IMG/VR virus record: IMGVR_UViG_2534681835_000018
Length of the DNA: 10,423 nucleotides
Source: a virus
Lineage: Duplodnaviria > Heunggongvirae > Uroviricota > Caudoviricetes
Strand: one strand, 5' to 3'
The position numbers were made by a program. The first letter of the stretch is position 1; each line of letters begins with the position of its first letter. This document shows positions 6,001 through 10,423 of the stretch, piece by piece.

Positions 6001-9000
6001 TTTTCTTGATCACGCTTTTGCAACCGGCGTGCTCGGGTAAAAGAGGTTACTGATGCGTATAGAGTTTGTTTTGCCTTACCCGCCGACGGTGAACACCTAC
6101 TGGCGACGTCGTGGCAGCACATATTTTGTATCAAAAGCCGGTGAGCGTTATCGCCGGGCTGTGGCGCTTATTGTTCGCCAGCAGCGGCTGAAATTAAGCC
6201 TGTCCGGACGGCTGGCAATAAAAATTATTGCAGAACCACCGGATAAGCGCCGCCGTGACCTGGACAACATTCTGAAAGCACCGCTGGATGCGCTGACGCA
6301 TGCGGAAGTGCTCATTGATGACGAGCAGTTTGATGAAATCAATATTGTGCGCGGTCAGCCTGTGCCAGGTGGACGGCTGGGCGTGAAGATTTACGAAATC
6401 AGAGGTGGTAACGATGGCGCGTGATATCCAGATGGTTCTTGAGCGATGGGGGGCATGGGCAGCAAATAATCATGAAGATGTAACATGGCCCTCGATAGCT
6501 GCTGGTTTTAAAGGATTAATCCCGACTAAAGTGAAATCACGTCCTCAGTGTTCTGATGATGACGCCATGATAATTTGTGGTTGTATGGCACGATTAAACA
6601 AGAATAATCAGTATTTGCACGATTTGTTGGTGGATTATTACGTAGGTGGAATGACATTTATGGCTCTTGCACGTAAGCATAGATGTTCTGATGGGCTTAT
6701 TGGTAAAAGGCTTTATAAAGCGGAAGGTATTATTGAAGGAATGCTTATGGCTCTGAATGTCCGGTTAGATATGGATATGCGGTAGGGATATATAGTGATG
6801 AGGGTTATGTTTTCTGTGTTTATAATTAACATGTTTATTTTTTGATGGTCATGTATTGTGGAAGGTAGATAAAATGTTGCCTGGTGAATTGAAAATATTG
6901 ATAATCAATCTTCATCATTAAATAAAAGGAGTGCTTATGTGGATTGTGTTAGTACTGTCACTGTCAACTCTCAGTTGGCATAAGGTAGTGGCTTTTTCAT
7001 TGTTGACGGTGTCTGTTGTCCTGGCTGTGCTTAATGATATTATTGATTGGTCGGTGTTATTTTTTGTTGCTACAATCGTTTTTTTTATTATTTTGAAGTT
7101 CAACTGGAAATATAACGCCTGGGCTAAATCTATATATGAAGTTGGCATAGTTTTATCAGCCATAGCATTATCTTTCCATCTATGGCCAGGGTTTCACAAT
7201 CCTGTAGTGCTAAATTCTGTTACTGTTGGCCCTCAAAGTACTCCCTATACAATGTATTTTAATTTTGATAAAGCGCTGGTGCCATTTTTGTTAGTCCTGT
7301 GTACATCTTCTTTGTTTAAAAAAGAAGTAAAATCAGAAGTGTCTTTGTGGAAGTGGGGGGCTCTGTCGCTCTCTGTTCCTCTTATCCTGTTTTTGGCTGT
7401 TTTTTTTGGTGGATTAAAGCCAGAGATTCATTTTCCTGAGTGGTTGCCAGAGTTTATATTGGCTAATTTGTTTTTTGTGTCTCTGGCAGAGGAATCATTA
7501 TTTAGAGGGTATATTCAATCACGGCTATCAGAAGTAACGTCTCCATTGGTTGCATTAATTGTGGCGGCTTTGTTGTTTGGTTTTTATCACTATTCAGGTG
7601 GTGCTTTACTTGTATTATTTGCCACGTTATCTGGTGTTGTGTATGGATTGTCATGGATGTGGAGTGGGCGTTTGTGGGTTGCCACCCTTTTCCATTTTGG
7701 TTTGAATCTGTGTCACTTGTTATTCTTTACCTATCCATTTTTAAAACATAATTGATTTTTTCTATGGTTTTAAATTTATAAGACTGAAAAATAGCAGGAC
7801 GTGACATTTGCATGAAAAATATGCACGGCAAAGCATTTACGTACGTAAAAAATCAGGTATGCTGTTAAGAGTGGTTATTTCGCCGCATAGCTTGACCCCG
7901 CCTCTGAGCGGGTTTTTTGTGCCCGCAAAGTAGCGCAGTGCGTTAAATGTGCTGGTAGTTATTAATACAGGTCTTTCAGCTTGCTGGCTTTTTCGGCAAG
8001 AGTTATTGGTGTGTCACGTTAACCGGAAAGGGTAAAAAGACATGCTGAAACAGCAGGATATGACAGAAACCGCCAGAGTTGTGTTTGATGAATTAAGCGT
8101 CACCGAACCGGCGACAGTCGGGGAGATTGCGCAGAATACTTACCTTTCACGCGAACGCTGCCAGTTAATACTGACCCAGCTTGTTATGGCGGGTCTGGCA
8201 GACTATCAGTGCGGTTGTTACAGACGCCTTCAGTCCTGAAGGCTTTTTTATTTGTGGTAAATGGGCGGCTGGTGGGTGTTAGCGGCACCTGTCAGTCCTT
8301 TGCTTATGTGTTGATGATAATTTACCTTTTGGGGCTATAATTGAACTAACCAATTGCTAATGAAAGTAAAATTATAATGGTTGTTGTCTGTTCAGTTATC
8401 ATGGTTTGCTCCCCAATTAATATTTTTCTTGAAAAGGATACGTTGTCACTTAAGCCCGGCTCAGTCGTTCTGGCCACCAAATGCATCAGGGCGCTTTTCC
8501 TTATGCATTATGGCAAAGTTAAAATTTTCGATATAAACCATTCCATAGTAAGTCAATATCTGGAAATTCAGCATAAGCTGACAAGAACTCATCTGACTGA
8601 CGTTCCGCTTTATCTGTCACTGGAACCCAACAACCCTGCGTTGGCTGAGGCTTTAATTACCAGCCAGAGATTTTCCGGAGATACCACGGATATGTTTCTT
8701 ATGATGGCATGCCTGTCGCTGTTTGAATCAGATGAACGGATATTATTATTTTTAAGTGGATGTTTATCCAGTATAAGTGCCAAAGTCAGGGCGATAATTC
8801 AGACAGATATATCAGCAAGCTGGACGCTTGGTGCGATTGCGTTACGCCTGCATATGAGTGAGAGTTTGTTAAAGATAAAACTGAAAAATGAAGGGCACAT
8901 GTTCAGTCGCTTGTTGCTGGAAGAGCGGATGCGTGTTGCTGTGAATATGTTATGTTCCCGGCATGGATATGGACAGGCTGTAGCAGAAAAATGCGGTTAT

Positions 9001-10423
9001 TCAAGCTGGTCCTACTTTATTTCTGTATTTCACCGCTATTATGGCTTCCCGCCAGACAGATATGTATCCAGGCAAGGGCTTGATTATTGATTTTCATCTG
9101 ATTATTATTTTTTGACCCGGCCCTTTAGCTCAGTGGTGAGAGCGAGCGACTCATAATCGCCAGGTCGCTGGTTCAAATCCAGCAAGGGCCACCATCACAT
9201 ACCGCCATTAGCTCATCAGGAAAGAGCGCCAGCTTTCGAAGCTGGTTGCGCGGAGTTCGGGTCCCCGAAGGCGGTCCATTATCTGTATCCTGCGTTGTTA
9301 GCTCAGCCGGACAGAGCAATTGCCTTCTAAGCAATCGGTCACTGGTTCGAATCCAGTACAACGCGCCACACTTATTTTCCCTGGCTCGCTTTTGCGGGCC
9401 TTTTTTTTAAATGTCTCACAATTCAGGCGGTTGACTGTTGTCTGGTTTGCGGGGAGTTTGTTAAAAGAAACTGGCATGGTGAATCCCCCTGTGCGGAGGG
9501 GCAATCAGCGAGTAGGTATATGGGATAATCGCGGATTCAGGTGCTGGTACTGAATTCACCGGGAGGCACCCGGCACCATGCAATGGCACATAGCGCCACT
9601 CTCCAGCCCCTCTCCGGAGGGGCTTTCTTATGGACAAAAAAAGCCCGCGCAGGGAGACGCGGGCGGCAAGGAATAAACAACAAAACGTGAAGTAATATTT
9701 CAGCTGGCGAATAATATCCGACAGTAATCACTCTGCGCAATAGCGCGGCCTTTTTCGTATTGCGGGCTGTTGTCTCTCTTCTGCCATTGTCCTGTAACTT
9801 CCGGACTTCAGCCCGCTCCTCATTTTACTCACAATATTATCCCGGCCGGGAGGATTCATGGCATTTAAACACTATGATGTTGTCAGGGCGGCGTCGCCGT
9901 CAGACCTTGCGGAAAAGCTGACACACAAACTGAAAGAGGGCTGGCAGCCATACGGCGGACCGGTTGCCATTACGCCGTACACACTGATGCAGGCGGTGGC
10001 TATTGAAGGAGATCCACAGGTCGGCCCTTCATCTGAGCCGGACTGGTTCTACGTGGTTGTGCTTGCCGGACAGTCCAACGGCATGGCCTACGGTGAAGGG
10101 CTTCCGTTACCGGATTCTTACGATGCTCCGGATCCGCGCATTAAACAGCTGGCGCGCCGCAGCACGGTAACTCCGGGTGGAGAGAGTTGTACGTATAACG
10201 ACATCATTCCGGCTGACCACTGCCTGCATGATGTGCAGGATATGAGTACGCTGAATCATCCGAAGGCAGACCTGAGCAAAGGGCAGTACGGCTGTGTCGG
10301 CCAGGGCTTACATATTGCCAAAAAACTGCTTCCGTATATCCCGAATAACGCGGGGATCCTGCTGGTACCATGCTGTCGTGGTGGTTCTGCATTCACCCAG
10401 GGCGCTGAGGGGACATTCAGTGC

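Follow-up and report, generated by a model that had tools for sequence, protein, structure and literature searches.

Does the space between the antiterminator gene and the tRNA cluster of a lambdoid prophage hold one three-gene system, or separate pieces of cargo that lie side by side? The question is raised by a stretch of 10,423 nucleotides of viral DNA (Caudoviricetes; IMG/VR record IMGVR_UViG_2534681835_000018), called here the window, in whose numbering all coordinates are given. Its gene order (DUF968, RusA, the antiterminator gene Q, a CPBP intramembrane protease gene, a 65-residue open reading frame (ORF), an AraC-type regulator gene and three tRNA genes) is that of a lambdoid early-right and late-control region. 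An earlier inspection of the DNA by itself (the sequence-only reading) had picked out the three genes that follow Q as an AT-rich cassette, perhaps mobile as a unit, in a combination that it did not recognise as a described one. All three are present as co-directional plus strand ORFs between the end of Q (6785) and the start of the tRNAs (9119), and the Q-to-tRNA slot of this Stx-type late-region backbone does carry accessory, AT-rich cargo, as that reading held. The region is nevertheless ordinary, previously described prophage cargo of enterohaemorrhagic Escherichia coli (EHEC), and no new three-gene system. We conclude that it is very probably a two-module mosaic of known cargo of prophage Sp4, in which Q, the CPBP gene and a putative late promoter (PR') form one module and the small gene, the regulator gene psrA and the tRNAs form the other. 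The identities of the genes, the limits and distribution of the modules and the integrity of the motifs were worked out here; PsrA function, the mutant phenotype of the protease gene and expression levels come from the literature; the positions of PR' and of the CPBP promoter and the role of CPBP are putative.

The interval is a known stretch of EHEC prophage DNA

Positions 6301-9450 are 99.65% identical to prophage Sp4 of E. coli O157:H7 Sakai (L007), where the counterparts are ECs1084 (antiterminator), ECs1085 (CAAX protease family), ECs1086 (hypothetical) and ECs1087 (AraC family), followed by ileZ-argN-argO; the sequence of ECs1084-1087 was determined in 2001. The old annotation of strain EDL933 lists Z1785 as an endodeoxyribonuclease, Z1786 as the Q antiterminator, Z1787 and Z1788 as hypothetical and Z1789 as a 'putative envelope protein', and Z1790-1792 are absent from the EDL933 protein list, which is consistent with three tRNA genes. 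The three genes are thus already known, as part of the Q-to-tRNA stretch of the Sp4/CP-933M-type prophage of O157, O111, O26 and O145 E. coli, and the combination cannot be called undescribed, since it is that of ECs1084-1087 and Z1786-Z1789, and PsrA and Z1787 have each been the subject of papers. The old EDL933 record labels these genes CP-933N, and reviews put psrA (Z1789) on OI-50/CP-933N, a label that probably reflects the first EDL933 assembly. Neither Sakai Sp6 (L005) nor the prophage next to potC in the closed genome of EDL933 (1615000-1660000; L006), to which the 'OI-50' label points, contains psrA; both have a different Q region that lacks these genes.

The 2333-base interval between Q and the tRNAs is 100% identical to DNA of many O111, O145 and related genomes. 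Of the 5426 complete E. coli genomes to which all genome counts refer, 540 contain it at a coverage of at least 80%. There are 530 matching records that are at least 99% identical to it, which points to one recently spread DNA segment and not to independent events. The best genome matches are non-O157 (O111, O145 and O26), as opposed to O157 for the published PsrA. The CPBP gene is present in 572 genomes, nearly always in single copy, psr genes in 726, with a median of two copies, and the small-gene block (7840-8300, same coverage criterion) in 2241, with up to nine copies; CPBP and psrA occur together in 540 of the 572 genomes that carry CPBP. A regulator of the PerC family, TccP2 and the remnant of EspV lie in the same prophage in the O111 context (L001), and Sakai Sp4 likewise carries pchA and tccP2. 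In one O111:NM genome (NZ_CP077526.1, 3325812-3329457) a copy of the insertion sequence (IS) IS1203 splits the interval in two and two AraC fragments are annotated, which suggests that psrA is disrupted there.

Two modules are exchanged independently

We propose that two modules, each exchangeable independently of the other, make up the interval as a mosaic, and that this is part of the late-control region of a lambdoid prophage of the Sp4/CP-933M type from E. coli positive for the enterocyte effacement locus (LEE). Module A (about 6405-7918) would comprise a Q21-family Q, the AT-rich CPBP gene and the PR'-qut-tR' block on which that Q type acts, and module B (7897-9368) a shared terminator and leader, the 65-residue backbone gene, a second terminator, psrA together with a conserved promoter of its own, and three tRNAs for rare codons. 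The window Q protein matches the Q21 structures 6P18 and 6JNX (E 6.9e-8); it is 79-91% identical to the Qs that precede CPBP orthologues in four other prophages (L009-L012), and only 44-46% identical to the Q proteins of phiP27 and EH2201. Prophages of E. albertii and E. coli, and Shigella-labelled ones, have CPBP orthologues (83% and 59% identity) directly after a Q that belongs to the same allele group. Among these, L009-L011 (E. albertii and E. coli) match positions 6301-7998 at 85% identity and then pass directly into a holin gene; in L012, Q is followed by a CPBP gene at 59% identity; and none of L009-L012 contains the small gene or psr. The converse arrangement, small gene, psr and tRNAs without CPBP, occurs in three settings (L015; L016, which is STEC719; and L002, phage phiSTEC1575-Stx2k), each with another antiterminator type (a DUF1133-type protein in O157, a 221-residue Q in an Stx2k strain and a 250-residue protein in phiSTEC1575-Stx2k). 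Since CPBP is found without the small gene and psr, and these without CPBP, the three genes are not passed on as one block, and the proposed mobile cassette gives way, once synteny is compared, to modules A and B found separately.

The positions themselves are variably filled. In phiP27 a GIY-YIG nuclease gene occupies the CPBP slot and a DNA methylase gene the psr slot, in Stx2a phages a DNA methylase gene and not psr follows the small gene, and in EH2201 the CPBP slot is empty and a conserved leader/terminator block comes directly after Q. The AT-richness that had been ascribed to all three genes holds for CPBP (37.9% G+C) and psrA (42.3%) but not for the small gene (51.0%), which resembles the backbone (DUF968 52.9%, RusA 53.5%; Q itself is at 42.3%). 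Similarly, each gene had been credited with its own ribosome-binding site, and among the three a strong one (AAGGAG) is present at CPBP only. If the genes are viewed as morons in the sense used for lambdoid phages, insertion between elements that are adjacent in relatives holds for CPBP (from EH2201) and for psrA (from the methylase in its slot), and so does a base composition that deviates from the approximately 53% of DUF968 and RusA, which the 65-residue gene does not show. As for autonomy, CPBP is transcribed without induction (published expression values, below), the promoters are consensus matches only, and between CPBP and the putative PR' there is no terminator that belongs to CPBP itself.

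A putative late promoter lies between the protease and the small gene

Where would the late transcript begin? Sakai, L009, L012 and the DLP12 prophage of E. coli K-12 all keep a block that consists of TTTACG, a 16-nucleotide spacer, TATGCT, GTTAAGAGTGGTTA and a strong terminator, with about 50 nucleotides from the promoter-like element to the intrinsic terminator. In DLP12 this PR'-like block lies about 120 bp upstream of the holin gene essD with no CPBP gene nearby, and homology between the window and DLP12 begins precisely at the -35 hexamer; in L009 and L012 the PR'-like element comes after Q or CPBP. The leader at 7864-7896 is present in all loci with a short Q of the Q21 family (the window, Sakai, DLP12, phiP27, EH2201 and L009; it has diverged in L012) and is replaced by unrelated sequence where the antiterminator is of the DUF1133, 221-residue or 250-residue type, so that homology of loci with other Q types to the window starts only at 7897 or 7908. 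As the block is conserved across Q21 loci and changes with the type of Q, we infer that 7836-7918 would be the PR'-qut-tR' of this Q type and that its terminator would be the joint between the modules. Immediately 3' of Q, the window, phiP27 and EH2201 have no conserved sequence in common, and the position just upstream of the block is taken by the porin gene nmpC in DLP12 and by the GIY-YIG nuclease gene in phiP27. A full-text literature search for the conserved leader sequence gave no match.

This layout has in common with the Q21-type late cassette (Q, PR', pause site and tR') a Q21-family protein, a promoter, a close terminator and an element that varies with Q type, but differs from it in that an expressed 0.8-kb gene stands between Q and the putative PR'. 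Because it lies upstream of that promoter, CPBP would not belong to the Q-dependent late transcript; downstream of the promoter would come the small gene, psrA and the tRNAs. The hairpins at 7897-7918 and 8226-8252 are terminator-like and have T-runs, in agreement with the sequence-only reading; however, the first of them, which had been assigned to CPBP as its own terminator, is part of the conserved promoter/terminator block and is found also where CPBP is absent. A 41-residue ORF (7808-7933) that overlaps this block and matches no family was treated as spurious.

The CPBP protease and its expression

The window CPBP gene is the same gene as Z1787 of EDL933: published primers for quantitative reverse-transcription PCR of Z1787 match the window exactly (6954-6974 and 7429-7448), and the protein differs from Sakai ECs1085 at one residue. 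The earlier assignment to this family is borne out by a PF02517 match of 1.4e-19 (70.6 bits against a gathering score of 22.4), just as the AraC assignment of the third gene is by HTH_18 and HTH_AraC matches above their gathering scores. We take ATG 6937 as the true start, since homologues begin at MW and AAGGAG precedes it. The catalytic motifs EESLFR (185), FGFYH (214) and HFGLN (253; numbering of the 272-residue protein) are invariant in 23 homologues. An AlphaFold model of the protein has a mean predicted local distance difference test score (pLDDT) of 94.3, and its two best fold matches in the PDB are SpdC and Rce1, with a probability of 0.99 and a template modeling score of 0.47-0.51 for SpdC and E-values of only 0.045 and 0.095 for SpdC and Rce1; a sequence search of the PDB with the protein gave no match. 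The likeness to M. maripaludis Rce1 and S. aureus SpdC thus lies in family features (the Pfam domain, the three catalytic motifs and the fold), at only 13-16% identity to solved members. SpdC is without catalytic residues, and the window protein, unlike SpdC, retains them. It belongs to a distinct Enterobacterales family of about 272 residues, in which the N-terminal region PGFHNP...GPQS...NFDKALVPF does not vary. In Dickeya, Enterobacter, Photorhabdus, Pseudomonas and others the orthologue, at about 50% identity, is encoded by a single chromosomal gene with host-like G+C content and no phage context, and the genes of the four named genera share no neighbours; the phage copies have 36-38% G+C. 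Literature searches with CAAX or CPBP together with prophage and O157 found nothing relevant by those terms, although Z1787 has a paper under its own name.

Published RNA-seq of EDL933 in LB medium gives values, in reads per kilobase and per million mapped reads (RPKM), of 6 for RusA, 5 for Q, 39 for Z1787, 11 for Z1788 and 7 for Z1789, over a background of 0.14; in the same data the Z1787 transcript is present under most of eleven conditions, and with SOS-inducing antibiotics it rises to 51, with Q and Z1789 at 0. In cells that were not induced, Z1787 is at about eight times the level of Q and RusA, which argues for a separate CPBP promoter, which would most likely lie within the 145-bp spacer of 27.6% G+C that follows Q, where promoter-like hexamer pairs are found at 6846-6875, 6877-6905 and 6889-6918. 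The suggestion that the genes could be switched on at induction, if they lie downstream of PR', is not borne out by these values for CPBP and psrA: CPBP lies upstream of the putative PR' and is expressed uninduced (39 as compared to 5 for Q), the RPKM of psrA is 0 under SOS-inducing antibiotics, and induction-dependent expression of either gene thus finds no support. The CPBP product would then be a predicted multi-pass protein of the membrane in which the glutamic-protease site is intact, made from a gene that is transcribed in uninduced lysogens, and our best guess is that its role is in lysogenic conversion, by acting on a membrane or envelope protein. If it cleaves a specific host or phage membrane protein, as in immunity to a membrane-targeting toxin or exclusion of other phages, this would be a new mechanism of lysogenic conversion in Gram-negative bacteria.

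PsrA and the small gene

The window AraC-type protein equals the long ORF of Sakai ECs1087 in 237 of 237 residues. The Sakai record gives PsrA an internal start (588 nucleotides and 195 residues, L007 18804-19391), but RefSeq records from the Prokaryotic Genome Annotation Pipeline and the full-length alignment to YdeO favour the ORF of 714 nucleotides and 237 residues. Its domain matches are HTH_18 at 36.6 bits (cut-off 33.6) and HTH_AraC at 35.3 bits (cut-off 26.6), and it aligns with full-length YdeO at 8.9e-30, with GadX at 4e-25 and with the GadX DNA-binding domain (3MKL) at 1.5e-18; judged by these alignments, PsrA is a YdeO/GadX-like paralogue. The region upstream of the gene is 94% conserved, with an invariant -10 hexamer, across psrA, psrB and Stx2k loci. 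A second psr copy in O157 is 90.7% identical to the window protein, in agreement with the 90% published for PsrA and PsrB; this copy, PsrB (Z2104), has the small gene upstream and tRNAs downstream, as in the window, but is preceded by a DUF1133-type antiterminator and lacks CPBP. A 2026 paper places psrA as ecs1087 in Sp4, and the window gene has the same neighbours (Q, CPBP, small gene and tRNAs) in the same kind of prophage, but in a non-O157 host.

A 2024 review describes PsrA and PsrB as prophage-borne regulators of the AraC/XylS type that increase GadE and YhiF and by this route repress type III secretion; according to the same review, hdeA and gadE are activated, and acid resistance is raised, by PsrB and PatE, and psrA deletion phenotypes are reported in O157. 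PatE (Z0321), a prophage-borne AraC-like activator of gadE and hdeA, is of the same family as PsrA. On the basis of that published work PsrA would switch on gadE (and yhiF), raising acid resistance and repressing LEE type III secretion, and the earlier guess of a lysogenic conversion tied to acid resistance comes out right for this one function, the AraC gene being psrA, whose product is described in the literature as a gadE activator. The region thereby connects the presence of the prophage with acid resistance and with the control of LEE secretion in major EHEC serotypes, a link already published; what our analysis adds is a cleaner anatomy, in which the protease goes with Q, outside the putative Q-dependent late transcript, and the regulator with the small gene and the tRNAs. 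In phiSTEC1575-Stx2k and STEC719 the tRNAs and stx2k are immediately preceded by a psr-type regulator gene (89% identity of its product to PsrA) and the small gene, so that an acid-resistance/LEE regulator is carried on a Shiga-toxin phage; this arrangement bears on the spread of psr-type regulators with toxin phages.

Homologues of the 65-residue protein number 295 and are 77-98% identical to it; they come from Escherichia, Salmonella, Klebsiella, Citrobacter and Buttiauxella prophages. The protein falls in PHROG 331, a family without an assigned function; its gene is a backbone gene and not cargo. It had been called a small DNA-binding protein. Its AlphaFold model (pLDDT 74) has four helices, and the top matches in a fold search are all winged-helix or helix-turn-helix (HTH) domains; however, none is significant (best E 0.38), and a match to TrmB (PF01978) of 17.8 bits is below the cut-off of 25.6, so that a DNA-binding role is plausible but weakly supported. 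In Sakai, ECs1086 (L007 18344-18583) has lost one base relative to the window, with a frameshift at codon 50 and a product of 79 residues that ends in an unrelated tail.

Alternative explanations

Might the three genes still be one lysogenic-conversion or defence/immunity system, for example a protease that controls, or is controlled by, the two regulators? They stand in the same order in 540 complete genomes, and in Gram-positive bacteria CPBP proteins partner with signalling proteins and with bacteriocin immunity. Nearly all of the 540 co-occurrences, however, are at least 99% identical and thus one DNA lineage; moreover, CPBP is found without the small gene or psr and these without CPBP behind three other Q types, psr usually has two copies per genome and CPBP one, and the small gene is frameshifted in O157 Sakai, O157 being the serotype for which the review describes psrA deletion phenotypes. 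The defence models of PADLOC-DB 2.0 gave no match for CPBP or PsrA and one marginal match for the 65-residue protein (E 0.0034, 14 bits), which leaves the idea of a defence/immunity module without a matching system, and we regard a single three-gene system, which the distribution largely refutes, as highly improbable. A different transcript map could also be drawn, in which 7836-7918 is simply the 3' end and terminator of the CPBP or early transcript, PR' lies just after Q (6786-6930) and all three genes belong to the Q-dependent late operon. That is where PR' lies in lambda and in many Stx phages, and several promoter-like hexamer pairs do occur at 6846-6918; but the window, phiP27 and EH2201 show no conservation just after Q, they and DLP12 share the 7836-7918 block, which in DLP12 stands directly before the holin gene without CPBP, and the part 5' of the terminator switches with Q type, all of which makes a PR' next to Q very unlikely.

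The role of CPBP can be read in other ways than the lysogenic conversion that we favour. It could be a lytic-cycle gene tied to its Q allele and expressed as a delayed-early gene by read-through from Q, for instance for superinfection exclusion or for remodelling of the envelope before lysis. The Q-CPBP-PR' order is kept where CPBP is only 59-83% and Q 79-91% identical, and no terminator is predicted between Q and CPBP; against this stand the uninduced Z1787 transcript at about eight times Q and RusA, its presence under most of the eleven conditions and the chromosomal orthologues with host-like G+C and no phage context, and we consider a lytic function decidedly unlikely. It also appears unlikely that CPBP is a virulence protease that, directly or after release, blocks interferon-gamma/STAT-1 signalling, as was proposed in 2009. 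In favour of this, deletion of Z1787 from EDL933 removed the block of interferon-gamma-driven STAT-1 tyrosine phosphorylation (119% as compared to 4.7% of control), and the gene was induced 2.7-fold by HEp-2 cells (Jandu et al. 2009, PLoS One 4:e4889). In the same study, however, complementation was partial, transfer to HB101 gave only a partial effect, and there was no induction with T84 cells. A 2012 paper from the same laboratory does not mention Z1787 and calls the STAT-1 factor a still unidentified secreted protein. Jandu et al. treated Z1787 as a possibly released protease, whereas the model obtained here is that of an integral CPBP membrane protein with a buried active site; a predicted multi-pass protein with an intramembrane active site makes release improbable. 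Finally, the deletion may by our reasoning have been polar on psrA, about 600 bp downstream; the sole functional claim for Z1787 comes from a partially complemented deletion just upstream of psrA. A possibility that we entertain only tentatively, and think rather doubtful, is that CPBP is a conserved companion of one Q allele, wedged before that Q's late promoter and expressed in lysogens, and that the STAT-1 phenotype is wholly or partly due to polarity on psrA.

Several points weigh against the two-module mosaic as we have drawn it. That CPBP and psrA occur together in 540 of 572 genomes would agree with a functional link. phiP27 and EH2201 do not keep the -35 hexamer, although they keep the -10 region, leader and terminator, and the assignment of PR', qut and tR' is a putative one that draws on conservation, on matches to hexamers and on variation together with Q type. 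The RPKM values come from one study and were assigned to genes through the old EDL933 gene order, and the function of PsrA is given here as portrayed in the 2024 review and the 2026 paper.

Features of the Q-to-tRNA region in the window. Promoters, leaders and terminators are predicted.
Feature	Position	Strand	Basis or remark
Q, Q21 family, 123 residues from the RefSeq start	6414..6785 (ORF opens at GTG 6405)	+	PF06530, 4.9e-52
AT-rich spacer with candidate CPBP promoters and ribosome-binding site AAGGAG (6926-6931)	6786..6936	+	27.6% G+C over 6786-6930
CPBP (Rce1-like) intramembrane glutamic endopeptidase, 272 residues	6937..7755 (ORF 6931-7755)	+	PF02517
Putative PR': -35 TTTACG (7836-7841), 16-nucleotide spacer TACGTACGTAAAAAAT..., -10 TATGCT (7858-7863), start near A7870	7836..7863	+	Conservation; predicted
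Leader GTTAAGAGTGGTTAYTT... of this Q type, likely pause and Q-loading region	7864..7896	+	Conservation with Q type
Intrinsic terminator, putative tR' and module joint	7897..7918	+	Stem CCCGCC...GGCGGG, then TTTTTT
Leader 5' of the small gene	7919..8041	+	Kept in phiP27, Stx2 phages, L015, L016 and L002
65-residue helical HTH-like protein, orthologue of Z1788/ECs1086	8042..8239	+	PHROG 331 at 6e-37
Terminator-like hairpin with T-run over the small-gene stop codon	8226..8252	+	Kept in psrB-type loci
Candidate psrA promoter, ATGATA-16-TATAAT	8314..8341	+	10 of 12 positions; best promoter-like match in the region
psrA, AraC/XylS family, 237 residues	8377..9090	+	HTH_18, HTH_AraC
tRNA cluster of ileZ-argN-argO type, anticodons CAT, TCG and TCT	9119..9368	+	Annotated ileZ1/argN1/argO1 in Sakai

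Other features of the window

The tRNA cluster is followed by a terminator at 9383-9408, and just after these, at 9445-9635 on the plus strand, the Rfam small RNA family STnc100 has a strong match (138 bits, with 47 as the gathering score). A sok antitoxin RNA in the early-right region (4220-4394, plus strand, 117.5 bits) overlaps a Hok/Mok-type ORF (4332-4544, plus strand), and together these constitute a hok/sok type I toxin-antitoxin locus; a weak isrK-like match at 4553-4634 (27 bits) is below threshold. An IS3-family element (IS1203/IS629-like) occupies about 2312-3525 on the minus strand, with a 108-residue orfA, a 295-residue orfB and an ALIL frameshift pseudoknot at 3128-3244 (120.9 bits), and it appears to truncate a plus strand ORF at 1741-2505.

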